Source: a virus
Strand: one strand, 5' to 3'
Length of the DNA: 64,000 nt
IMG/VR virus record: IMGVR_UViG_3300014839_000005
Span: 1-64,000 of that record
The notes beneath the pieces were generated by a model. That model saw only the letters and a list, made by a program, of their open reading frames with translations. It searched no databases and was not told the DNA's origin. Of the stretch, positions 2,941 to 52,008 are shown in pieces; positions within the stretch are counted from its first letter, which is position 1, and each line of letters starts with the position of its first letter. Both the position numbers and the translations under genes were made by a program.

Positions 2941-3075
2941 TGACTGCTCCCACGGCTAAAGCCGTGGGCTTTCTCGCTCACAAGATCGTAAATTGGCCTG
3001 AAAAATCGGTTAAAGGGCATTTGGCTCCTAATCAGGTTTAAAGCCCCGCGACTTTAGTCGCAGGGGATATTTACA
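2941..3075 (+). mobile_element. non-autonomous IS200/IS605 derivative (PATE-like), boundaries approximate
   Basis: left hairpin CCCACGGCTAAAGCCGTGGG; right end GTTTAAAGCCCCGCGACTTTAGTCGCAGGGG-ATATTTACA, resembling the right end of the tnpB element (GTTTAAAGCC...TTTACA). Confidence 0.7.
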
Positions 3076-3108
3076 TTTTATTCCTTCTAATTGTTATAAT
3101 TAAAAAAA

Positions 3109-3127
3109 AGGCTGCGCGATGCAGCCT
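3109..3127 (-). terminator. intrinsic terminator
   Basis: AGGCTGC/GCAGCCT stem flanked by A- and T-runs. Confidence 0.65.
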
Positions 3128-3561: not shown

Positions 3562-3588
3562 AGAAGGGGCTTATTCAGCCCCATCTTC
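3562..3588 (-). terminator. terminator closing the ubiquitin-like operon
   Basis: GGGGCT/AGCCCC stem with extension, just downstream of the Ubl stop. Confidence 0.6.
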
Positions 3589-3610: not shown

Positions 3611-4084
3611 TTAGTTACCTTTGGTTCTCGTGCTCAGAACGAGGCGCACGGGAAGGGCGGCATCTGCGGGTGTCGGAATGGTCGTATCGCCAGAGACCGC
3701 TTCTCCGCCATTGATACGGTATTCATAGACATCCTTACCCTCTTCCGTGTAGAACTTCGCCCTGTCTGCCGGCGGCAGCGTGTTGATCAGGCTTTTGATC
3801 GAAGTGCCTGATTCACAGGGAAGTTCGATGATGGCATCCGTATGCCCGATACGGATGATTTTTACCGTAAAGGGCGTGTTGCCCTTCATAGCGTCGCCGA
3901 TATAGACGACATCGCCGTCTTCGAGTTCGTAGCCACGTTCCACATTCTCCTGGTTCACGGTGATGCAACCAGGCCTGTAGTTCACGTTGGCTTTGTCCAG
4001 AAGGCCTCCAACTGTCGGGTTGTCGGAGATTTCATACTCGATGACCGGCTTACCGATGAGTACTAATTTGACCAGAACACACAT
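3611..4084 (-). CDS. tandem di-ubiquitin-like (beta-grasp) protein
   Basis: two ~70-88 aa ThiS/MoaD/Ubl-like units, each ending K-G-N (DAMKGN; TRTKGN*); adjacent to E1 and JAB. Confidence 0.75.
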   Translation of the reverse strand: MCVLVKLVLIGKPVIEYEISDNPTVGGLLDKANVNYRPGCITVNQENVERGYELEDGDVVYIGDAMKGNTPFTVKIIRIGHTDAIIELPCESGTSIKSLINTLPPADRAKFYTEEGKDVYEYRINGGEAVSGDTTIPTPADAALPVRLVLSTRTKGN

Positions 4085-4101
4085 GATAGAACTCCTTAAG
4101 G

Positions 4102-4869
4102 TTATATTGACTTGAATTGGCGATACATATGATCATAATGTTCGCCATCTGCTGCAACACATTCGGGAAATACAAACTGCAGTTCACTAAGAACCTTTGG
4201 TGCAGTAGCTTCACCGCGTTTCAGATATTCTTTTCCATACTTCAGATCAAAGTGATGGATAAGCCTCCAAACCGCTCGACTGGCTAGATTATATACGGTT
4301 GGTATTATTGACGCAGATGCGCCACATGCCGATACTTCGGCCTGATCGTCATCGTATAATGTCTTTTGCCATTCTTCAACTTCGACTGGATTATTTGGAT
4401 CAAAGGCATAGACCCTACCTTTATCTATACCCATTCTCGTCTCAATAACCAAATCGGTGGTGAATGAATACTGTAAAACGTTCTTAAATATATCCTTTCT
4501 ACTGGCCATGGTATCGGTCAATAGAAAGACATAAGTTGATCTTACATCGTTTTGGTTAGTGACCATTTCATTGTGAGTCTCAATAGTAAAGCCGCACTTG
4601 CGCATAATCACATCAGCAAGTGCCATTACTTTTGGCATACCAATGTGACTTCGATCATACGCCTGATTGACTAAATTATGCTCCTCAACAATATCACCAT
4701 CCCACACTTTCATTGTTCCTTGGCCTTGGACTGAGTTGCCCCAGCCCATTTGAGCTAATTGGAGAGCTACATATGAGCCCGTTGCTCCGACACCGATAAT
4801 TGCTACGCTTTTCTTTCCAATTTGACTTGGATCGAGTAGCGCTAATTGCCTCGAATAATCCATAAACAC
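4102..4869 (-). CDS. ThiF/E1-like adenylating enzyme
   Basis: YSRQ, GxGxxG (IGVGATG), DxDxVExHNLxNQ, KV, TD, ETRMG; candidate catalytic Cys in SACG; no CxxC pairs. Confidence 0.9.
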   Translation of the reverse strand: MFMDYSRQLALLDPSQIGKKSVAIIGVGATGSYVALQLAQMGWGNSVQGQGTMKVWDGDIVEEHNLVNQAYDRSHIGMPKVMALADVIMRKCGFTIETHNEMVTNQNDVRSTYVFLLTDTMASRKDIFKNVLQYSFTTDLVIETRMGIDKGRVYAFDPNNPVEVEEWQKTLYDDDQAEVSACGASASIIPTVYNLASRAVWRLIHHFDLKYGKEYLKRGEATAPKVLSELQFVFPECVAADGEHYDHMYRQFKSI

Positions 4870-4875
4870 CTCTTT

Positions 4876-5679
4876 CTATTTTGTAAACTCAAAAGCGTAT
4901 GAGTGTTTATGTTTATTTTTCTTACTTCTTTTTCCTCCAGCAAAGTAATTTTCCCTCGGTGTATACGTGGTATCAGGCCCATAATGCTTGACTATTCCAC
5001 GATTAGGAAGTGGGGGAGTCCCAAATCCCATTCTTCTTTGATTCCAGTCATCAACTCCTTCTCCATATAACTCATCACTGAAACCGTTGCTGAGAGGATA
5101 TGATGGCGTGGTGGGAAGATTTACCGCTTTCAATTCGAGGATTTTTGCCCTTATCTTTTTATCCTCTTCATCTTCATCGGTTTCCCATTTGATATTATCA
5201 AAACGACGTTTGTTCTGATAATCGTAAAATGAGATAGACAGCAATCCTGCCTTGTTGAAAATGCCTCGGATAAGATAAGATTCGTTTCTATTCATTCTTT
5301 CAATTGACTGAGTCTCATCCTGTCCTGAAGGAGAAACTCCCATATCGACATGGGAGTGTCCCCAGAACTTCGCCTTGCTTAAATCGGCTTCTCTGTTATG
5401 AGTCATCAGCCATTCAGCCATCAATGTTTCACCTTCGGGGGAGATTTCACACGTGGCTCCTGCAGCTTCAGAGTGTTTGGGATAAAAGATATCCCTGATA
5501 ACGTATGTATTGTTTTCAAGTTCGTCTACAAAACCAAATACGCCGACTTCATGAGGATGAAGATCGGCAATAGCAGTCAACCATTTCAAGGCATTACCTG
5601 TAACCCTGATTGTAGGTGCTGTTATTTTAATTGGTTCGAGAGTTGTGTAAGTTGTTTGTTTAGCTGGTTCTGGCTTCAT
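4876..5679 (-). CDS. JAB/MPN+ metallopeptidase
   Basis: N-terminal HEVG Glu and HSH-x7-S-x2-D motif (WGHSHVDMGVSPSGQD). Confidence 0.88.
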   Translation of the reverse strand: MKPEPAKQTTYTTLEPIKITAPTIRVTGNALKWLTAIADLHPHEVGVFGFVDELENNTYVIRDIFYPKHSEAAGATCEISPEGETLMAEWLMTHNREADLSKAKFWGHSHVDMGVSPSGQDETQSIERMNRNESYLIRGIFNKAGLLSISFYDYQNKRRFDNIKWETDEDEEDKKIRAKILELKAVNLPTTPSYPLSNGFSDELYGEGVDDWNQRRMGFGTPPLPNRGIVKHYGPDTTYTPRENYFAGGKRSKKNKHKHSYAFEFTK

Positions 5680-6781
5680 TTGCTTCCTCCACTATTGGCC
5701 ACATTTGAATAGGGCGACCCATCACATCATCTTCATTGGGAGTGCGAATATATCTCACCAATAAATCGACGAGCTGTTCCAGGTCTTTGTTAATCAGACA
5801 TTTTAATATCGGCTCAGTCCATGTTCCGAAACAGGGTTGGCCAACAAGATTAACATGACCGCATTCTTGACCAGCATTTAAGTCTTCTCTTGTGCGGTTT
5901 CGTATGATAATCGGAGGTTCATTTGTTACTCTGGTTCCCAGCATGGCGTCAAGCCTTACATAGAATTCCATTTCACCAATATCTCTCTTCTTACCATCTT
6001 TTAACGGGTTGGTTATGATGTGGTCGGTTTTAATTACGAGATAATTGTTGGTAAAGTAAATTTCCTTTATCATATTATGCTCGTTTTTTACCAATCCATC
6101 AATTTTTTCCCTGAATAACGAAACAATGGGATCCGCTCCGAGCGAACTTGATAACCTTGTAATTTCATTCTGCATAGTCATAAGATTGGCCATTAGTCTG
6201 TTATACTGAGCAGTTCTATCCGTCAGCATTTTGGCCCGACCTGCAGCGTCATTATCAAGTTTGGAAGCAATTAACGTTGTCAGATTTTCAGGAGTGATTT
6301 TTTCAAGATTTGGAAGCCCTCTTAATGAATTGTGTTCTGACCCATCTTTGGGAACGTCACGGAATGCGGGATGTTCTTTTTGGCATGTACAGCGATCAAT
6401 CAATTCCTCACAATCCTCACATCTTTCGCAATCGCAATCCGAAAGAAGGTGATCACATGCCGGACATCTTGGTTCTTCATCAACCTGTCCAGGAGCAGGT
6501 GTTGCACCTGCATTTTGGGCAGTTTGTCGTTGCTGCTGCTCGGCTGCAGTTACTATGGCATAACTGTATTCGACAATGCCGTTATTAGCATGTGTTGTTA
6601 TCGGTCTGCCGAAATGATTGCTAATTGCAATCCTTAGCAACTCAACAGTGGGTGCGTCAAGTATGTCAAACTTGAACTCACCGCTGGTTTCCCCAAAATT
6701 CCCTTTTGCATACCTGAAAATACTTTCAGGTATTGTAGCGAGAGTAAAACGAAACTCTCGCTTTAATAGTACAGTTACCAT
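5660..6781 (-). CDS. Cys-rich / coiled-coil protein with C-terminal E2 (UBC)-like domain
   Basis: GHVNLVGQPCFG resembles the E2 HPNV-x3-G-x-IC motif; twin CxxC-x6-CxC; paralogous C-terminus to 6790-8829. Confidence 0.6.
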   Translation of the reverse strand: MVTVLLKREFRFTLATIPESIFRYAKGNFGETSGEFKFDILDAPTVELLRIAISNHFGRPITTHANNGIVEYSYAIVTAAEQQQRQTAQNAGATPAPGQVDEEPRCPACDHLLSDCDCERCEDCEELIDRCTCQKEHPAFRDVPKDGSEHNSLRGLPNLEKITPENLTTLIASKLDNDAAGRAKMLTDRTAQYNRLMANLMTMQNEITRLSSSLGADPIVSLFREKIDGLVKNEHNMIKEIYFTNNYLVIKTDHIITNPLKDGKKRDIGEMEFYVRLDAMLGTRVTNEPPIIIRNRTREDLNAGQECGHVNLVGQPCFGTWTEPILKCLINKDLEQLVDLLVRYIRTPNEDDVMGRPIQMWPIVEEANEARTS

Positions 6782-6789
6782 TCTTCCTC

Positions 6790-8829
6790 CTATACAGGAA
6801 TTGCCCCAGCCAATACTTCATCAAAGTGTTGGTCTTCGGGCTTGTTTATAAATTCAGCCTTTTCAGGTTCTTTTTCAGTCGCTTTTTGTTCTTGCAACCT
6901 TATCATTTCCTCCGAAATTTCGGGCCAACAATTTACATATTTGCCGGCTGCATCATCGGTATTCGCTTGTTGCAAAAACAGAATTAACTGAAGTACTAGT
7001 TGATACAAATCCCTTTTCTTATATGCATTTGTCATACCAATTGCCAAAGTTCCATGACAAATGTGTCCATCCTGGAATACATGAGGAGCCTGCATATTTT
7101 GACCGCTGAAAGCTACTATCTGATGCTTCGTGTTCTTAATGAGGACAGTATTGTCGGTATTGTATGAATTGGAGTGCATTCCAATGGTAATATGGAACGT
7201 TCCAATATCATGCATCTTTTTACTTCTGTCATCACGGGCATACAAGTCATCAGTATATACATGAACAGTTTCGTCTTTGATGAAGACGGTCTTTACTTTT
7301 GGAATAGACTTTACCGCAGTGTATTCATCAAATGCTTTTTTCCGCATCTTTGTCTGCTGTTCAGACTCATTAAAAGATTCAATTTGTTCCATGTATTTTG
7401 AACACATTTTTCCAGATTCCATAGCCTTGGTCAAATAATCTTCATACGCAGCCTTTGCATCCTCATATGCCTTCTTCAACTGACGAATGACGGAACTGGA
7501 ACTGTCCATGACAAATTTAATATATTCATCACAGTTTCCCTTTTCCAGAATAGCCTGATAATTACTGTCGATTTTCAGCAATTCAGAATATGGAACTAAA
7601 CCGTCAAACCGTCTTGCTATTTCACTCATAGCTGTTTTTGCAAACTTCTTATTATCATATGCGTTAAACATCAATATGATAATATTCCGTTCTTGTAATG
7701 CAAATACGACATTAGTCGCAGTATCCTTATAAATTTTATCGTATTTTGCATATGGTGAGTTTCTTTGTTCGGCGAATATTTTATCTATCGCTTCTTTTTT
7801 GGCGTCTGAACTCATGGATCCATCTTTAATAGCCTGAATCTCTTTGTTTACATCATTACCTTTAATAATGGCAAGATTATGAATTTCAGTTCCAAAAGCA
7901 GTGGACTTAATCTCACTGATAGTGTTGGTAATATCTGTATAACCACTTTGCGCACCATTAGTAGCGATAAATAAAAAAGATTGATTTACAATAGACTTAG
8001 AACTCAACGCTTTCTTTGCCTCCATAAGCCATCTTCTGTCGTCGCCTATAATAAGATGACATTTTACTTGATTGGCAAAATCAAATAGAAAACTATCATC
8101 AAATACTTCTGGAGCAGCGCGTAGTTTACATACCTTGAATTTGCTGTCATTTTTACTTTCGAAGCGAAATCCTATAGTATGTAACTGTTGCAATCGCTCA
8201 TCAACAGTTTCAGATACTTTATCCAGCGCTTCTGCTAAAGTGGTTTTATGCCTTTTCACTGTACGCCTTCCTCCTTCATCTTCCACATTTTCCATAACCT
8301 CTTCAGCCATCGTTTCTGCCAATCCTCTCACAGTTCCTCGTAATCTTTCCTCTGCAGCTCGACGTTCTGGCGCAGGACCTATACCTCCAGTTGGTTGTGC
8401 CATATCCTCAGGCCTTATAACACGAACCATTGGTTCAGGTTCTTCAGGCATTGGTTCTTCAGCATAGGCAGTTCTGATTTCTCTTTCAAAGTTAGCCACA
8501 TCAAACCTTTGAGTGCCAACCCCTGCCTCTTGAATAGCTTCATACGTTGTTGTCTCTTTTACTGAACCATTAGTTAGACTATTAAGAATGTCATCGTTGT
8601 AATAATATTTATGAATGATCACTCTCATCCCTACAATGTCGGCTTCCTTATCAAGAGGCATTAAACGGTCAGAATCTCCTGCAAGTTCCCATACCCTTTG
8701 AAGAGCGCCCAGGACTCTGATATAATAGTTCTTTGTTATCATAGCGGCTACTCCGCCGCCATTTAGCACAAATGGCTCAAACGGAATTCCGAGAACCAGC
8801 GCCAACCTTTCCTCGATAAATCCGAACAT
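6790..8829 (-). CDS. large coiled-coil protein with C-terminal E2 (UBC)-like domain
   Basis: APHVFQDGHICHG matches the E2 active-site pattern; helical coiled-coil segment precedes it. Confidence 0.62.
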   Translation of the reverse strand: MFGFIEERLALVLGIPFEPFVLNGGGVAAMITKNYYIRVLGALQRVWELAGDSDRLMPLDKEADIVGMRVIIHKYYYNDDILNSLTNGSVKETTTYEAIQEAGVGTQRFDVANFEREIRTAYAEEPMPEEPEPMVRVIRPEDMAQPTGGIGPAPERRAAEERLRGTVRGLAETMAEEVMENVEDEGGRRTVKRHKTTLAEALDKVSETVDERLQQLHTIGFRFESKNDSKFKVCKLRAAPEVFDDSFLFDFANQVKCHLIIGDDRRWLMEAKKALSSKSIVNQSFLFIATNGAQSGYTDITNTISEIKSTAFGTEIHNLAIIKGNDVNKEIQAIKDGSMSSDAKKEAIDKIFAEQRNSPYAKYDKIYKDTATNVVFALQERNIIILMFNAYDNKKFAKTAMSEIARRFDGLVPYSELLKIDSNYQAILEKGNCDEYIKFVMDSSSSVIRQLKKAYEDAKAAYEDYLTKAMESGKMCSKYMEQIESFNESEQQTKMRKKAFDEYTAVKSIPKVKTVFIKDETVHVYTDDLYARDDRSKKMHDIGTFHITIGMHSNSYNTDNTVLIKNTKHQIVAFSGQNMQAPHVFQDGHICHGTLAIGMTNAYKKRDLYQLVLQLILFLQQANTDDAAGKYVNCWPEISEEMIRLQEQKATEKEPEKAEFINKPEDQHFDEVLAGAIPV

Positions 8830-8895
8830 AATTCCTCCTAATTAAAAAAAATTAAGTTTATAATTAATTAACTAATTAATATTACCTACATTATA

Positions 8896-8923
8896 GTTAT
8901 TACAGAAATGGAATTGAAATAAC
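8896..8923 (-). promoter_or_regulatory. GTTAT-N18-ATAAC copy with adjacent TATAAT, heading the ubiquitin-like operon
   Basis: minus strand reads GTTAT-N18-ATAAC-TATAAT, 67 nt upstream of the 8829 start. Confidence 0.75.
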
Positions 8924-11437: not shown

Positions 11438-12115
11438 ATGAATTCAACATTTATTTATGCCTTATTAGATCCAATAGAAAAACAAGAGTTTCATATTTAT
11501 ATAGGTAAAAGTGATAACCCATATATACGGTATTATCAGCATCTAAAGGATAAAAATCATAGTTATAAAACTTGTTGGATTAAATCACTTACTAAAGAAA
11601 ATTTAAGTCCCGATATACAAATTCTTGAAATCGTAGATCAATATATATGGGAAAAAAAAGAAATAGAATGGATTAAATTTTATAGAGAACATAATTATAT
11701 TATAGTTAATGAAACTAATGGTGGAGATGGTGGATATTTTACTAAAGAAATTCAAAGAAAAATGATTGAATCTCGTAAAGGAAGAAAACCTAATCTTGGA
11801 AATCATCATTCTGAAAAAACAATAAAAAATCTTAGTAAATTAAATATGGGAGATAAGAATCATTTTTATGGAAAACACCACTCTGAACAAACTAAAATCA
11901 AATTAAAGGAATCTCATATAGGTATATGCCGATCTAAAGAAACTAGAAAAAAGATGAGCGAAGGTCACTATGGTAAACGCCGCTCTGAAGAAACTAAAAG
12001 AAAAATTAGTGAATCTCATAAAGGAATATGCCCATCTGATGAAATTAAGCAAAAAATAAGTAAAATTAAAATAGAAAAAAATAGACAAAAACAACATCTT
12101 ATTTTATTTTCATAA
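11438..12115 (+). CDS. free-standing GIY-YIG homing endonuclease with NUMOD3 repeats
   Basis: FIYAL...IYIGKS...RYYQH; repeated HSEET/KISESH units; opposite orientation to its neighbours. Confidence 0.88.
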   Translation: MNSTFIYALLDPIEKQEFHIYIGKSDNPYIRYYQHLKDKNHSYKTCWIKSLTKENLSPDIQILEIVDQYIWEKKEIEWIKFYREHNYIIVNETNGGDGGYFTKEIQRKMIESRKGRKPNLGNHHSEKTIKNLSKLNMGDKNHFYGKHHSEQTKIKLKESHIGICRSKETRKKMSEGHYGKRRSEETKRKISESHKGICPSDEIKQKISKIKIEKNRQKQHLILFS

Positions 12116-45587: not shown

Positions 45588-45660
45588 TAAAAAAAGTCAA
45601 GCTTTTATTTTTGCCACATTTTATGTATTTTCATTGTATACTATATTAATTAGGAGTTTT

Positions 45661-48600
45661 ATGGCTATACCATCCCACCAAGACATACTTAAGAAGCTCA
45701 GCGACTTAGACACTTCGACCAGATCCAACGTTCTGATGAATGAGACTATTAAGAATACGGTAGGAAAGATATTGTCCTCAGTAGAGAATCCTAATATAAA
45801 ATTGCAGGTCAATGACATATGGTATAAACAAAAATACGATAATGACGACATCGCTGCCCAACAATCTGTTAGAAATAAACATCAGAACTGGACTGACGAT
45901 ATCAGGGCTGATGTATCGTTAATTGATAAAGCCACTGGAAAAATCATTGATCGTAATAAAGATTTAAAGATAACTAGCGTCCCAAAATTAACTCCTCGCA
46001 ATACCTATCTCATCGGCGGTAACGAATATTCTTTCACTAAACAGAGCCGTTTAAAACCTGGTGTATATACTAGAAGGCAGGAAAATGGCGAAATTAGTTC
46101 GTTTTTTAATGTCGATAAAACTATCGATTTTGATCGTGGTTTCAATAATAATTTTAAGCTTAATTTCAATCCTGAGCGTAAGACATTTACTATGGGTTAT
46201 GGTTCAAAAAATATACCCTTATATAATGCTCTTAAAGCGGTAGATATAAAAGATGAAGATTTGATGGATAAATGGGGAAAAGATGTCGTAGAGGCAAATA
46301 GACAGGCTTATGAAAAACATGAGTTCAGGGACCAAGCAAAATTGTATGAAGCAATATTTGGTAAAGCCGCTCCTGATACTATGACTCACGATCAATTAAA
46401 AAAAGAAATTAAAGATAGGTTATTTGCGACAAAATTAAGTTCTGAAACTACAAAACTGACCCTTGGAAAAGAATATGATGGAGTGAATAAAGATGTCCTT
46501 TTAGATGCTTCTAAAAAGATTATTGATATTCATAAAGGTGAGACAGAGGGAGATGATAGAGAGTCATTGTTGTATAAATCGTTTTACGATATTGAAGATC
46601 ATGCAAGAGAAAATTTGGTTAAAAAAAGCAAGAATATTATTGGGAGTTTGATTTATAAATTAGATAAAACTAAGAACATTAATAAATCAATAAGCTCGGG
46701 ATTCTTTGACCCGTATGTGATTGGCACAATAACAAAGAATATGTTATCAAGTCCTCCCAGTCAAACAAATATTATGTCTATGATTGGGGACGGAAATAAA
46801 GTCACTGTTATGGGTGAGGGCGGTATTGGTAATGAAAATGCCGTTACTAACCAAACAAGACAATTATCCAACAGTGAAGCTGGATTTATTGATCCATTAC
46901 ATACTCCTGAAGGCGGAAATATTGGAGTTACAAATCATTTAACCATCGGCACAATTAAAGTCGGTAATGATATTTATAATTCATTTCTTAAACTTAATGG
47001 AGAAAAAGTTCTTTACCGCCCTGTTGATACCCACCCTTTAAATATTGCCTTCCCAGACCAATATGATTTATCCAGTAAAAAGCCTGAACCTCTTAGCAAT
47101 AAGATTAAAGTGTTAAATCATGGAAAATTTAAAGAAGTAAAGCCCGAAGAAGTTGATGCTATTATGGCAAGTCATGTCAACATGTTCGACCACTCAGCTA
47201 ATATGATTCCATTTCTTGATTCCATACAGCCTAATAGGGGATTAACAGCGTCAAAAATGCAGGAACAGGCCCTTACCCTTAAATTTAGAGATAAACCATT
47301 ATTTAATCTTATCAATGAAAAAGGTCAAAGTTTAAACGAAAATTTAGGTCGCGTATCTCCCACTCCACGATCTCCTGTAGATGGTGAAGTTGTGGCAATT
47401 AACCCGAATTTAATAACATTACAAGATAAGCGTGGAAATAAAGTAAAAGTACAATTATACAATAATTTTTCATTAAATGCTGAAGGCTTTATTCATAATG
47501 AGCCAGTAGTAAAAATTGGCGATAAGGTTACAAAAGATCAATTACTTGCTGATAATAATAATACTAAAAATGGTCAGATAGCATTAGGAGCTAATCTTAA
47601 AGTTGCTTACATGCCATACAAAGGCTACAATTATGAAGATTCCGCTATTATGTCTGAAAGCGCCGCAAAGAAATTAACATCTGAACACATCTATGATTTT
47701 AGCGCTAAGAAATCTGCAAACGGCCATTTTTCTAAAAACAAGTTTAGAGCATATTATCCTGAAATAATTAATACGAAACAAGCTGCAAAACTTGACTCTG
47801 ATGGTGTAATTCACCCAGGGCAGGAAGTCGACCATGGAGACGTACTGATAGCTCATCTTGAGCGAAAGGCCCCCACAGCTGATGACATAGCCCTAGGAAG
47901 GCTTGAGAAGCAACTTCGCAGAGATATGGCTAATAAGGCTGTTACTTGGGATAATGACCATAAAGGGGTCGTTACAAGCGTTGCTAAACATGGTAATACA
48001 GTTACTGTAAGTGTTAAAACTGAGGAACCTCTTAAAATTGCCGATAAAATATCGGGTTTACATGGTAATAAGCATATCATCTCCAAAATAATACCTGATC
48101 ATGAAATGCCATTTAATCCCAAAACTGGTGAGTATATGGATCTCACCATGAGCCCAATTGGTGTTTCCAATAGGATTAATACTTCTCAATTACTTGAAGC
48201 TGCTGCTGGTAAAATAGCTACTAAAACTGGAAAACAATATGAAGTAAGAAATTTTACTCAAAGTGACAATACTGAGAGAGTTTTAAATGATTTGAAAAAA
48301 AATGATTTATCAGATAAAGATATTTTAGTCGATCCGCAATCTGGTCAACCATTTAAAAATCCTATTATGAATGGTGTTTCTCATATATTAAAACTTGAAC
48401 ATAAAGTTGACCATAAATTCTCTGCAAGATATAGGGATGGACATGATTCTAATGAACAAGCCATTACTGGTGGAGAAGAGGGCGGTAAAAATCTTGGTAG
48501 AATGGAAGTAGGAGCTTTATTAGCTAGAGGCGCTACAGAAAATCTTAAAGAAATGTTTAATATTAAAGGCCAAAAGAATAATGAGTATTGGAAAGCCCTT

Positions 48601-51600
48601 GAAACTGGAGATATGCTTCCTCCGCCGGCACCATCTTTTGTTTGGAATAAACAAATAGCAATGATGCAAGGTGCTGGAATTAATGTCGTTCAAAAGGGAA
48701 AACAACTTAATCTTAAACCTATTACTGATGAAGAGATAAAAGATTTATCTAATGGTAAATTAGAGAATCCAACAGATACATATAGAAAAAAAGACCTTGC
48801 TCCTATTAAGGGTGGATTATTCGATCCTGTTAAAGCTGGTGGTATGCAAGGTGAACATTATACACATTTTGAACTTCCCGAAAAGGTGCTTAATCCTATT
48901 ACCGCTACCGCCGCGTCTACTATGCTTGATCTTACTTTAGATGGCCTTGAAGATATTATTAATGGGAAACAATTTGTTGACCAGGATTCTGGAAAACTTG
49001 TAAAGCCTGGAACGCCCAATTCTTTTTCAGGCGGTCCTGCTGTTGAAAAATTATTAAGTCAAATCAATGTTAATAAGGAACTAGAACAACTTGAAAATGA
49101 TAGTAAAGTAATTACAAATAAAACACAATTGAATAAGATTCATAGAAAAATCAGATATTTTAAATCCTTACAACAAAACAAAATGAATCCAACTGATTAC
49201 ATGATAAAAAATGTATTAGTTGTTCCATCAAAATTCAGACCAATGTTTACTATGGGTACTGACAATACAGTAATTATGTCGGATGTGAATGATTTATATC
49301 AACAAACTGCTTATACTGCTGAAGCTCTTAAGGATTTAAAAGATACCTTAAATGAAACAATTAAAGATGATAATATAAAACATATTCAACTTGCTGAGAG
49401 TAGAGGACAGTTATATCAAGATGTTAAAGCCCTTGCCGGATTAAGAGAACCAACAGCATTTTTACATAGAAGTAAGAATAAAAAAGGCTTTGTTGCTCAA
49501 ATAGATGGTGGAAAAAAGCAAACTAAAGAAGGTTTTTTCCAGGATAAGGTTATTGAGAAAAGACAAGACTTGGTTGGACGTTCAACTATTATTCTTAATC
49601 CAGAACTTGGTGGAGATCAAATTGGAATTCCCAAATTAATGGCAAATAAAATTTTTCAGCCATTTATAATGCAAAAATTAGTAAGTTGGGGATATAATCC
49701 TCTTGAGGCACAAAAACAAATTGAAGATGATACTCCTGTATTTCAAAGAGCACGTCAAGTAGTATCTGATGAACGATTAGTTATAGCTAATAGGGCCCCT
49801 TCTTTACACCGTTGGAATATGACCGCATTTAAACCTATTCTTACCGACGGCAAATCAATAGAAGTACCAGCAACATCGATACATCAAAATTTCAATGGCG
49901 ACTTTGATGGCGACTGTTTTCAAATTCATGTTCCTATAGGTGTTAAAGCTCTTGAAGAAGCTAAGAAAATGACACCATCATCTAGTATGTTAAAAACTGG
50001 ATTTGACACCGTCCTGAATAAACCTGATTTAGATATGGTAGTTGGAAGTTGGCTTATGTCGCAGGGTAGAGGCGGAAAGGCTATTAATTTAAAATATGAT
50101 TCTATTGATAAAGCAAGACAGGATTTTAAGCAGAATAAATTTACTTATGGTGACACTATTACCGTAGATGGAATTAAAGCTCCATTTGGTCTGCATGAGA
50201 TTAATTCAGTTCTTCCTGAAGATGTTAGAAAATATGATATTGAGTTAACTGGAAAAAATATTGATAATTGGATTAAAGATACCACGTTAAAACACTCTGG
50301 AAACATGGGATTAACTTTAGCTGATAAAATTAAAGATATTGGTAATAATTATTCTACTGCTTATGGATACAGTCTTGGATTAAATGATGTTAGGACTGTG
50401 AGAGATATTCGAGATCCATTATTGGTTGAAGCTAATAGTAAAATGGATAAAAAAAATCCTTTTAGTATTATCAAAGAAATTGCTAATGTAAAAGATAAAA
50501 TGATTAAATTACTTCCTGGAAGATTAAATCCCGACAATCCACTTGTGATTGCGGCTTCATCTGGTGGTGGTAGGGGATATGAAAATTCATCTCAAATAGT
50601 GGGTATGCCAGGAATAGTACTTGATGCTGATGATAGGCCAATTCCGATGCCTATTACAAAGTCTTATTCAGAAGGTCTGGATACTTCTGCTTATTGGGCT
50701 GCATCACATGGGGCAAGAGGTGCTAATATTAAAAAATCAATTCAGTCGTACAAACCTGGATGGATGACAAAAGATTTGATGAATTCAATTTATGACACAA
50801 GAATTCATCATGATATTCCAGTTGATACTGAAGGATTGGAATATAGCATTGATAATAGAAAACATGTTATGAATCGTTATTTGGCAAAAGATATAAAAGA
50901 TAGTCAAGGTAAAATTATAGCAAAACGAAATGATATCGTTGATGGAGATTTGATTAGTAAATTAAACAAAATGAAAATTAATAGTATTTTTGTTCAGTCT
51001 CCATTAACAGACCCAACTCCTGGAGATGGTATATCAAGTTGGTCATATGGAGTTGAAAATGATGGAAAGCGTTTAAAATCTGGAGATCATATTGGTGTTA
51101 TGAGCGCACACACTATTACAGAGCCATCACTTAATATGTCTATGAAAGCGTTCCATAGTGGCGGCGCTATGACTGGAACAACAGTAAATACCAAAGGTTC
51201 GGTATTTGATGCATTGGACAGAACCCTTAGATTCACTCAGGCTGTTCCTGATAAAGCTACAATGTCTACTGGTGATTCAAAAATTAAAAGTATTGAAAAA
51301 TCATCTATTGGCGGTTGGGATGTTGTTCTGGAACATAATGATGGTAGAGAAGAAACTAGATATATTGAACCAAACAATACTCCTATTATTAAAGTTGGAG
51401 ATAAGGTTAAAAAGGGCGATTTACTTTCTACTGGTAATGTGTCAATGCATGATGTACTTAAATATAAAGGAATGAAGGAAACGCAAAAATTTCTTGTTGA
51501 TGAACTTGACAAATTGAATGAAGGAAAACTAGATAGAAGAAATATTGAAGTTCTTGTACGTGGTATTGCAAATACTACAAGAGTGATGAATCCAGGCGAT

Positions 51601-52008
51601 AGTGGGTATGTTGCTGGAGATACAGTTCCATTAACTACTATTAATGATTTTAATAAGAATCTCATAACCGAAAAGGATGTAGAGGAAACTGAAGGTATGA
51701 GATTGAATAAACCTTATGCTGGATTTGATATTGGAATAAAACTTGATAAGTCCGCTATTAAACATTTACAGAAAAAAGGTATTAAAAGAATAGAAGTAAC
51801 AAGAAATCCTATTATTCATGATCCATTTCTTGCCCCAGCTGGGATTGGCGGAAAAATAGCCTCTGCAAGTGAAGACTGGATCGCAAGAATGGCGCATAAT
51901 AGAATTGAAGCAGTTCTCAAAGAGGGTGCTACCCAAGGATGGAAAAGTTCTTTTGATGATAAAAATAAGAATCATCCGATTTCATTATTAGTTATGAATA
52001 AAATGTAA
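45661..52008 (+). CDS. single-chain two-barrel DNA-dependent RNA polymerase (beta fused to beta')
   Basis: beta motifs DKISGLHGNK, KLEHKVDHK, GGKNLGRMEVGAL; beta' motifs GRSTI, NRAPSLHR, NGDFDGD (49894-49914), HGAR, EPSLNMSMKAFHSGG; start re-set to 45661 (AGGAG SD). Confidence 0.93.
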   Translation: MAIPSHQDILKKLSDLDTSTRSNVLMNETIKNTVGKILSSVENPNIKLQVNDIWYKQKYDNDDIAAQQSVRNKHQNWTDDIRADVSLIDKATGKIIDRNKDLKITSVPKLTPRNTYLIGGNEYSFTKQSRLKPGVYTRRQENGEISSFFNVDKTIDFDRGFNNNFKLNFNPERKTFTMGYGSKNIPLYNALKAVDIKDEDLMDKWGKDVVEANRQAYEKHEFRDQAKLYEAIFGKAAPDTMTHDQLKKEIKDRLFATKLSSETTKLTLGKEYDGVNKDVLLDASKKIIDIHKGETEGDDRESLLYKSFYDIEDHARENLVKKSKNIIGSLIYKLDKTKNINKSISSGFFDPYVIGTITKNMLSSPPSQTNIMSMIGDGNKVTVMGEGGIGNENAVTNQTRQLSNSEAGFIDPLHTPEGGNIGVTNHLTIGTIKVGNDIYNSFLKLNGEKVLYRPVDTHPLNIAFPDQYDLSSKKPEPLSNKIKVLNHGKFKEVKPEEVDAIMASHVNMFDHSANMIPFLDSIQPNRGLTASKMQEQALTLKFRDKPLFNLINEKGQSLNENLGRVSPTPRSPVDGEVVAINPNLITLQDKRGNKVKVQLYNNFSLNAEGFIHNEPVVKIGDKVTKDQLLADNNNTKNGQIALGANLKVAYMPYKGYNYEDSAIMSESAAKKLTSEHIYDFSAKKSANGHFSKNKFRAYYPEIINTKQAAKLDSDGVIHPGQEVDHGDVLIAHLERKAPTADDIALGRLEKQLRRDMANKAVTWDNDHKGVVTSVAKHGNTVTVSVKTEEPLKIADKISGLHGNKHIISKIIPDHEMPFNPKTGEYMDLTMSPIGVSNRINTSQLLEAAAGKIATKTGKQYEVRNFTQSDNTERVLNDLKKNDLSDKDILVDPQSGQPFKNPIMNGVSHILKLEHKVDHKFSARYRDGHDSNEQAITGGEEGGKNLGRMEVGALLARGATENLKEMFNIKGQKNNEYWKALETGDMLPPPAPSFVWNKQIAMMQGAGINVVQKGKQLNLKPITDEEIKDLSNGKLENPTDTYRKKDLAPIKGGLFDPVKAGGMQGEHYTHFELPEKVLNPITATAASTMLDLTLDGLEDIINGKQFVDQDSGKLVKPGTPNSFSGGPAVEKLLSQINVNKELEQLENDSKVITNKTQLNKIHRKIRYFKSLQQNKMNPTDYMIKNVLVVPSKFRPMFTMGTDNTVIMSDVNDLYQQTAYTAEALKDLKDTLNETIKDDNIKHIQLAESRGQLYQDVKALAGLREPTAFLHRSKNKKGFVAQIDGGKKQTKEGFFQDKVIEKRQDLVGRSTIILNPELGGDQIGIPKLMANKIFQPFIMQKLVSWGYNPLEAQKQIEDDTPVFQRARQVVSDERLVIANRAPSLHRWNMTAFKPILTDGKSIEVPATSIHQNFNGDFDGDCFQIHVPIGVKALEEAKKMTPSSSMLKTGFDTVLNKPDLDMVVGSWLMSQGRGGKAINLKYDSIDKARQDFKQNKFTYGDTITVDGIKAPFGLHEINSVLPEDVRKYDIELTGKNIDNWIKDTTLKHSGNMGLTLADKIKDIGNNYSTAYGYSLGLNDVRTVRDIRDPLLVEANSKMDKKNPFSIIKEIANVKDKMIKLLPGRLNPDNPLVIAASSGGGRGYENSSQIVGMPGIVLDADDRPIPMPITKSYSEGLDTSAYWAASHGARGANIKKSIQSYKPGWMTKDLMNSIYDTRIHHDIPVDTEGLEYSIDNRKHVMNRYLAKDIKDSQGKIIAKRNDIVDGDLISKLNKMKINSIFVQSPLTDPTPGDGISSWSYGVENDGKRLKSGDHIGVMSAHTITEPSLNMSMKAFHSGGAMTGTTVNTKGSVFDALDRTLRFTQAVPDKATMSTGDSKIKSIEKSSIGGWDVVLEHNDGREETRYIEPNNTPIIKVGDKVKKGDLLSTGNVSMHDVLKYKGMKETQKFLVDELDKLNEGKLDRRNIEVLVRGIANTTRVMNPGDSGYVAGDTVPLTTINDFNKNLITEKDVEETEGMRLNKPYAGFDIGIKLDKSAIKHLQKKGIKRIEVTRNPIIHDPFLAPAGIGGKIASASEDWIARMAHNRIEAVLKEGATQGWKSSFDDKNKNHPISLLVMNKM

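Follow-up and report, generated by a model that had tools for sequence, protein, structure and literature searches.

The window analyzed here, 64 kb in length, is the first part (positions 1 to 64,000) of the 128.5-kb IMG/VR virus record IMGVR_UViG_3300014839_000005, which derives from an uncultured phage of peat soil and has an estimated completeness of about 71%. Between positions 8829 and 3611 it carries five minus-strand genes that run in the same direction and are tightly spaced, with successive gaps or overlaps of 8, -20, 6 and 17 nucleotides (nt), and that together would supply the parts of a ubiquitin-like (Ubl) conjugation cascade. In order, they encode a large E2-like protein of 679 residues (6790-8829), assigned from family alignments and from its paralogy to the second product, a small E2-like protein of 373 residues (5660-6781) that is itself assigned from an AF2 model, fold matches and alignments; a JAB/JAMM metallopeptidase of 267 residues (4876-5679), identified by its JAMM residues and weak Prok-JAB matches; a single-domain ThiF-type E1 of 255 residues (4102-4869), identified by a Pfam ThiF match (E 7.8e-17) and alignment; and a di-Ubl precursor of 157 residues (3611-4084), recognized from an AF2 model, fold matches and ThiS matches in its relatives. 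The standard libraries (Pfam, PHROGs, PADLOC) recognize the E1 alone, and the other four proteins were assigned via structure prediction, family motifs and weak profile matches. We consider it probable, though well short of assured, that the five genes constitute a functional Ubl-conjugation cascade from which the phage itself benefits.

An earlier sequence-only reading of this DNA had proposed the same five tightly packed genes, including the JAB peptidase, the ThiF/E1 and the di-Ubl, and this content and packing hold up, the predicted activity of each of the five gaining independent support from folds, motifs, profiles and a conserved gene order. It had also placed a single promoter ahead of the operon, a claim that survives in part. 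A perfect TATAAT is found at 8895-8890, separated by a 17-nt spacer from TTCAAT at 8918-8913, but this -35 element is weak (3/6) and the promoter-like site as a whole (8890-8918, minus strand), read from the sequence in an AT-rich intergenic region of 100 nt, falls below the threshold of a consensus promoter scan and is unproven. A strong Shine-Dalgarno sequence, AGGAGG, lies at 8834-8839, 4 nt 5' of the ATG at 8829. At the other end of the operon the expected terminator was recovered by a terminator scan as a GC-rich terminator-like hairpin, GGGGCTGAATAAGCCCC, with a T-rich tail (3566-3582, minus strand), 29 nt past the Ubl stop codon.

The small E2-like protein is made up of an N-terminal α/β domain (residues 1-75), a coiled coil (178-232) and a UBC-fold domain (217-365, encoded by 5687-6133) that contains the invariant residues H309 and C317. 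The AF2 model of the 373-residue chain (mae7f9a8153a1) has a predicted local distance difference test score (pLDDT) of 84.9, rising above 90 over most of the UBC-fold domain, and in the modeled domain a helix, four strands, a loop with the His and Cys and three helices follow one another in the α-β4-α3 order of the UBC fold. When this domain was used in a structural search, 47 of the 50 top matches were E2s, aligned over ∼120 residues with Z 6.8-8.0 and root-mean-square deviation (rmsd) 3.2-4.0, including UbcH10 (Z 8.0, rmsd 3.8, 123 residues), UBE2K (Z 7.9), E2S (Z 7.8) and UbcH5; RWD domains and the Bub E2 (9eav_D, Z 5.1) ranked lower. Foldseek alone was weak with this model (E 0.04), yet its top matches were likewise E2s. 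Whether its two large proteins adopt the UBC fold had been left by the sequence-only reading as a point to check, and the model of the small one does so, at moderate Z. For the N-terminal 75 residues the fold matches were mixed and of middling quality (Nmd3- and GGCT-like, Z about 6.5), and nothing was concluded from them. Around residues 105-135 the protein also has a cluster of the form CPxC...CxCxxCxxC...CxC that is kept only among the closest relatives (in 6 of 7) and is missing from the wider family, and which may be a lineage-specific zinc-binding insert.

The large E2-like protein opens with a conserved domain, which a variable, acidic linker connects to a middle domain; a coiled coil comes next, and the E2-like domain, in which H583 and C591 are invariant, occupies residues ∼508-642 (6904-7308). 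Its C-terminus is paralogous to that of the small protein (BLASTP E 6e-10), and in an alignment of 35 sequences that spans both paralogue families and distant variants, residues T252, G269, H309, C317, G319 and D352 (numbering of the small protein) are invariant. The two E2-like proteins had been described at the outset as having a Cys in the HPN-x-G-x-C position; the Cys, an invariant His and the predicted UBC fold stand, but there is no literal HPN, the motif being (P/G)-H-V-x3-G-x2-C, with an invariant His-x7-Cys and the triplet (P/G)-H-V rather than H-P-N. The Cys (C317 or C591) thus falls 8 residues after the invariant His and, by the AF2 model and the alignment, C317 sits just ahead of the helix 319-330. 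The C-terminal domains of the two proteins are predicted to have a UBC-like fold, which is not the same as a demonstrated E2. No Pfam, PHROG or PADLOC match was obtained for the large protein and no Pfam domain in ten longer members of the E2-like family. The family is nevertheless large: when 1.84 billion metagenomic proteins were searched with a profile of the shared E2-like domain, 3,270 cluster representatives matched at E up to 0.001, of which 270 reached 1e-30 or better. In a collection of 5.8 billion proteins there are 17 relatives of the large and 8 of the small protein, and the matches suggest that the two genes share contigs in five cases. The neighbors of the family in a protein atlas are unnamed hypothetical clusters that are mostly viral.

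The JAB protein has a complete JAMM site, E...H-x-H-x7-S-x2-D, with E44, H108, H110, S118 and D121 invariant in 16 sequences; six of these 16 members match Pfam Prok-JAB, weakly, and the JAB profile touches CSN5/BRCC36 at E about 0.5. In the E1, the GxGAxGS nucleotide loop, D119, R124, ETRMG and S-x-C182-G are invariant over 18 aligned sequences. All 18 members are single adenylation domains of 223-276 residues, and in the 255-residue phage protein the domain starts at about residue 5 and is matched by ThiF across its whole length. The E1 profile matches MccB, its best solved relative (E 7.6e-11), as well as UBA6, PaaA and UBA1, the MccB alignment spanning only profile positions 11-108, which form the shared nucleotide-binding part, without the N-terminal peptide-clamp domain. 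PADLOC gives a single match in the cassette, a partial one of the E1 to the E1 part of CBASS Cap2 (E 1e-11). Among cultured phages, the nearest E1 (about 30% identity) is found in Xanthomonas PhiXhv-15 and Flavobacterium FpV4; these phages were considered as models and set aside, since family hidden Markov models detect no E2-like protein, JAB or KGN-type Ubl beside that E1. In cultured 228-kb Xanthomonas and Erwinia phages a short E1 (about 30% identity) follows an 892-residue protein (L025:2310-4988, PhiXhv-15, PV764602.1). In PhiXhv-15 this protein contains an H-x3-L-C-x-G segment, and its tail, very rich in Cys, recalls the Cys cluster of the small E2-like protein; the locus may represent a different E1-linked system in culturable phages.

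The fifth protein is modeled by AF2 (pLDDT 84.3) as two β-grasp domains, residues 1-66 and 70-157, and Foldseek aligns the whole with linear di-ubiquitin/ISG15 (E 1.7e-6, probability 1.00). Taken singly, the domains resemble SAMP1 (Z 9.2, rmsd 2.2, 77 residues) and MoaD (Z 9.1), and 5 of 13 orthologues match Pfam ThiS, with a best E of 3.4e-6. Unit 1 (residues 1-69; 3878-4084) and unit 2 (70-157; 3614-3877) each end in K-G-N, and in 58 of 59 di-Ubl relatives from databases this motif recurs both at the junction and at the C-terminus. What follows the last KGN varies. Of 58 open reading frames (ORFs), 18 stop at the Asn, another 18 run on by a single residue (L, E, K, N, F or R) and the others continue for 2-28 unrelated residues, so that these extensions differ in length and sequence as propeptides would. 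More distant cassettes have ...VNAA at junction and end (L040), ...SAA at both (L041), or AGN and KGN followed by an acidic tail (L043). Within each precursor the junction motif is therefore the terminal motif, in three states (KGN, NAA, SAA), a match that fits one protease releasing separate modifiers, and we take this pattern to point to a polyubiquitin-like precursor that would be cut into two modifiers. Because L040 and L041 end in NAA and SAA, the alignments indicate that the reactive end residue need not be Gly.

Two further features of the Ubl genes were observed. With a GC content of 0.53, and 0.63 at third codon positions, the gene stands well above the window (0.34), and at each of the 12 orthologous loci (L002-L014) the GC content of this gene exceeds that of its locus by 0.04-0.14, which could reflect codon selection for high expression. 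Furthermore, 18 database relatives have an extension of at least 4 residues past the last KGN, the extended proteins listed being P0170, P0171, P0172, P0174, P0189, P0207, P0212, P0227, L007:8129-8665 and L010:15082-15594. Eight of the 18 extensions, otherwise dissimilar, end in Ala-Ala (RRLAA, DSIAA, LRIAA, LLKAA, YRKAA, YKLAA, YMIAA and FRLAA). These ends resemble an ssrA-type ClpXP degron and also the NAA and SAA termini of L040 and L041; the Ubl of the window has no extension.

For a KGN-type modifier, the invariant Asn with a variable next residue and the many ORFs that stop at the motif would favor Asn as the mature end, and the precedent of all known Ubl systems would by analogy favor Gly, with the Asn trimmed. 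MccB is an E1-family enzyme that adenylates a C-terminal Asn, and the similarity of the phage E1 to MccB, as aligned here, is generic. One could nevertheless imagine that no protein conjugation takes place at all and that the E1 activates the C-terminal Asn or Ala of a β-grasp carrier, yielding a thiocarboxylate sulfur carrier or else, as with MccB, a succinimide or nucleotide adduct, in which case the Cys proteins would have some other role. The invariant terminal Asn of each unit, the rank of MccB among solved E1 relatives and the resemblance of the Ubl units to ThiS, MoaD and SAMP all agree with such a scheme. However, the MccB match is limited to the nucleotide-binding part and the phage E1 has no N-terminal peptide clamp, while a JAB and two UBC-fold proteins with invariant His and Cys are always present, and neither a rhodanese, ThiG, MoaE nor another partner was found nearby. 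We judge it quite improbable. The same evidence separates the cassette from the ThiS/MoaD sulfur-carrier systems, which it does not resemble in its end motif (K-G-N, not Gly-Gly) or in its neighbors (helicase, exonuclease, endonuclease and NAD-salvage genes), no sulfur-transfer partner being found. It is separated as well from MccB and PaaA, which belong to the same adenylating superfamily and are top solved matches of the E1 profile; here the likeness is confined to the Rossmann part, the peptide clamp is missing, the presumed substrate is a folded β-grasp protein and there are E2-like and JAB partners. The absence of sulfur-transfer context, and of an effector, had been part of the sequence-only reading, and we likewise found no effector, CD-NTase or sulfur-transfer partner.

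In order to see how the cassette is placed in relatives it is helpful to consider its surroundings. The genes around it belong to phage replication and nucleotide metabolism, and comprise an SNF2 helicase, a primase/helicase, a ligase, a fusion of a DnaQ-like exonuclease with a PD-(D/E)XK nuclease, and a fused RNA polymerase β/β'. On the basis of these flanking phage replication genes and the IMG/VR record the element is viral, in agreement with the earlier statement that the virus itself owns the machinery; Terminase_6N was not found in the record, which is incomplete, so that this result is uninformative. The order large E2-like, small E2-like, JAB, E1, di-Ubl is kept in 14 IMG/VR contigs of 15-208 kb, in which the large protein is 26-45% identical, within a syntenic block of exonuclease, two small genes, SNF2 helicase, three small genes and cassette. 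When the SNF2 gene is taken as the starting point, every one of the 17 IMG/VR contigs whose SNF2 is orthologous (at least 39% identity) has the cassette immediately downstream, three of these contigs being new by this route, and the three next-best SNF2 relatives that were scanned (L044-L046, 26-30% identity) have no cassette. Among genomes of 185,579 prokaryote species the large E2-like protein occurs on only six contigs, all from metagenome-assembled genomes, and two of these (L019, L020) have the same phage gene block. Because 17 of 17 lineage contigs carry it at a fixed site and it is nearly absent from prokaryote genomes, the cassette appears to belong to the core of a phage lineage and does not resemble a mobile defense island. 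The same phage recurs in peat, permafrost and freshwater metagenomes of many studies. Neither megablast with the operon nor tblastn with the large E2-like protein gave a match in 50,697 phage records, and no cultured relative was found. A search with the P0002-family alignment gave no match in viral or metagenome contigs, and a single-protein exonuclease scan gave none either.

Simpler, distant cassettes (L017, L018, L021, L022 and L023) have one E2-like gene, a JAB, an E1 and a single Ubl, in shuffled order, and L016, whose gene order is also shuffled, has a tri-Ubl of three near-identical units; these mono- and tri-Ubl variants likewise end in KGN. In the simpler cassettes the Ubls resemble unit 1 of the di-Ubl and the E2-like proteins resemble the large paralogue, which suggests that the core group acquired the small E2-like protein and Ubl unit 2 at a later stage. 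L023 has two fused E2-like domains, the second without His and Cys, which recalls an E2/UEV pair, and L024 has two E2-like genes with His and Cys kept in both copies and no Ubl within 8 kb. A strict rule of one E2-like protein per Ubl type was considered and discarded, since it fails on L023 (two domains, one Ubl) and on L024; given this failure the two E2-like paralogues may work as a pair. E2/UEV pairs such as Ubc13-Mms2 also combine a catalytic E2 with a second UBC-fold protein, one that is dead in the case of L023, whereas both E2-like proteins of the core group keep the Cys.

Several features in the vicinity lie outside the conserved block or interrupt it. An ORF with a NUMOD3 motif, resembling homing endonucleases (11438-12115, plus strand), is alone on the plus strand in this block and has no counterpart in the syntenic block of the relatives, so that it probably represents a mobile element inserted between SNF2 and the conserved gene that comes next. 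At 45634-52008 (plus strand) a 2,124-residue ORF matches PHROG families of both RNA polymerase β-type subunits and corresponds to a single-chain β/β'-like polymerase. Directly downstream of the cassette, at 455-2861, are a nicotinamide phosphoribosyltransferase gene (NAMPT_N and NAPRTase) and a cytidylyltransferase-like/NUDIX fusion. Together these NAMPT and NMNAT/Nudix genes resemble a nicotinamide adenine dinucleotide (NAD) salvage pair, of the kind used by phages against NAD-depleting defenses. They adjoin the cassette in this phage only, relatives holding other genes there. In between, at 2941-3074, DNA contigs from two independent metagenomes break, with a depth about ten-fold higher over 3026-3074, and a bidirectional terminator-like hairpin lies at 3109-3127; the interval 2941-3127 looks like a strain-variable junction or short repeat that separates the cassette block from the NAD genes.

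Among known systems the cassette is, on our best reading, nearest in kind to Bil, yet not a member. Bil (BilABCD) corresponds to operon class 6d of Iyer et al. 2006 (PMC1779556) and performs a bacterial ISG15-like ubiquitination (Chambers et al., PMC10557695; Hor et al., 10.1101/2023.09.04.556158). Both have separate genes for a β-grasp Ubl, E2, JAB and E1 in one operon, a peptidase that would be expected to pre-process the Ubl, and Cys-based chemistry. However, the Bil E1 has the architecture IAD-AAD-CYS (PMC11601596) whereas that of the phage is one 255-residue domain; Bil has one E2 and the cassette two paralogous E2-like proteins of 373 and 679 residues from a family with no E2-profile match; multi-domain Bil Ubls are conjugated whole via a terminal Gly, in contrast to units that each carry their own K-G-N (or NAA/SAA) end; and Bil is found in bacterial defense contexts, unlike a core module of a phage lineage.

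The likeness does raise the question of whether a Bil-like anti-phage defense is being carried by a phage so as to keep competing phages out, for instance through tags on their structural proteins. Phages can carry defense systems, and the NAD-salvage genes of this phage suggest conflict-related surroundings. The four activities are moreover those of BilABCD, which tags a phage tail protein (Bil papers). Yet presence in 17 of 17 lineage members, at 30-45% protein identity and in a fixed place among replication genes, is unlike a variable defense island; the cassette is nearly absent from bacterial genomes, no PADLOC model matches beyond the partial Cap2 E1, and the E1 architecture is not that of Bil. 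We regard such a role as unlikely.

Type II CBASS, with Cap2 (an E2-E1 fusion) and Cap3 (a JAB), shares the E1, E2 and JAB chemistry and a weak similarity between the phage E1 and the E1 part of Cap2. In the cassette, by contrast, E1 and E2 are unfused and there is a dedicated β-grasp modifier, and no SMODS match, and hence no CD-NTase, was obtained in the 128.5-kb record (about 71% complete). The conjugated C-terminus of CBASS can be Ala as well as Gly, which parallels the NAA and SAA variants. Bub (6E/DUF6527, PMC11601596) also combines an E1, an E2, a Ubl and a precursor-cutting peptidase, but it uses Tyr/Ser oxyesters, a Ser-His peptidase and Ubl-E2 and peptidase-E1 fusions, as opposed to the invariant Cys in E1 and E2-like proteins, the JAMM enzyme and the entirely separate genes seen here. 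Eukaryotic polyubiquitin precursors have head-to-tail units and sometimes an extra C-terminal residue, as here, but the two units of the cassette differ from each other and their end motif is not Gly-Gly. No account of a comparable phage-owned cassette emerged from full-text literature searches or from Iyer et al. 2006 and the papers on Bil and Bub, in keeping with the earlier remark that no characterization of this architecture was known.

Given that host Ubl systems attack phage proteins and that JAB enzymes cleave Ubl-target isopeptides (both from the literature), the phage cascade might instead decoy, out-compete or reverse host Ubl immunity (Bil, Type II CBASS or Bub), its JAB stripping host tags off phage proteins. 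The adjoining NAMPT and NMNAT/Nudix genes resemble an NAD-restoring counter-defense pair, although they lie beside the cassette in this phage only. For reversal a lone peptidase would suffice, and an E1 with two E2-like proteins and two modifiers points rather to active tagging, so that we think a counter-defense role improbable.

Our reading, rather, is that the cassette works for the infection programme of the phage itself, through the tagging of phage or host proteins, and is not a borrowed defense island, because it occupies a fixed place beside replication and recombination genes in all relatives and hardly occurs in cellular genomes. The gene set, the predicted folds, the invariant residues and the conservation are what has been analyzed; how the chemistry proceeds, which proteins are tagged and what the phage gains are inferred from these. 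The di-Ubl would be made as a polyubiquitin-like precursor, and the JAB would cut at both K-G-N motifs to give two different modifiers, in relatives also trimming the C-terminal extensions. The short ThiF-type E1, presumably homodimeric, would adenylate the freed C-terminus, and Cys182 may hold the modifier, which would then pass as a thioester to the UBC-fold Cys of both E2-like proteins (C591 and C317). The long non-catalytic regions of these proteins would act as built-in substrate adaptors, in the manner of an E2/E3 hybrid, and guide the transfer to lysines of the target proteins, and the JAB may also reverse the mark. More tentatively, and as a proposal that we consider possible but would not yet expect to be borne out in full, the lineage may run its own Ubl tagging for its own benefit through an unrecognized E2 family, with a reactive end that is mostly Asn and in some members Ala, an E1 that activates the C-terminal Asn of a folded protein, and two modifiers handled by two E2/E3-hybrid enzymes. 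To our knowledge, activation of a C-terminal Asn by an E1-family enzyme is known only from the microcin enzyme MccB.

A number of points weigh against this interpretation of a functional cascade that benefits the phage. The E2 fold matches come from a predicted structure and do not exceed Z 8.0, a range that the search tool flags as perhaps a mere common arrangement, and the folds were modeled from shallow alignments (13-35 sequences). By sequence, none of the known E2 profiles (UQ_con, Prok-E2_A-E, Cap2 E2) matched: neither Pfam, even at E up to 1 with 35 members, nor PADLOC, nor a profile search of the PDB gave an E2. Eukaryotic and Bil E1s load E2s by means of a Cys domain and a ubiquitin-fold domain, both missing from the phage E1, and the modifiers do not have a Gly-Gly end. 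Contigs of two peat metatranscriptome libraries cover the operon and its neighbors alike, but they could be carried-over DNA and give neither strand nor level. A target protein is not identifiable from the sequence analysis and, finally, a fixed position in the genome does not alone exclude a role in defense or exclusion.

Ubl conjugation in prokaryotes, as in Type II CBASS, Bil and Bub, has so far been understood as bacterial immunity against phages. Many eukaryotic viruses use protein tagging and, if our interpretation is true, prokaryotic viruses do so too, through a complete cascade that is kept as a core module of a lineage. It would add to the E2s a large uncharacterized E2-like family, that of the 3,270 cluster representatives noted above, and the cassette offers a minimal E1 that must load an E2 with neither a Cys domain nor a ubiquitin-fold domain. 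The KGN, NAA and SAA ends make the question of which C-termini an E1 can activate directly testable, in that after tryptic digestion the modified lysines would carry either a G or a GN remnant, which would separate the case of a Gly end from that of an Asn end.

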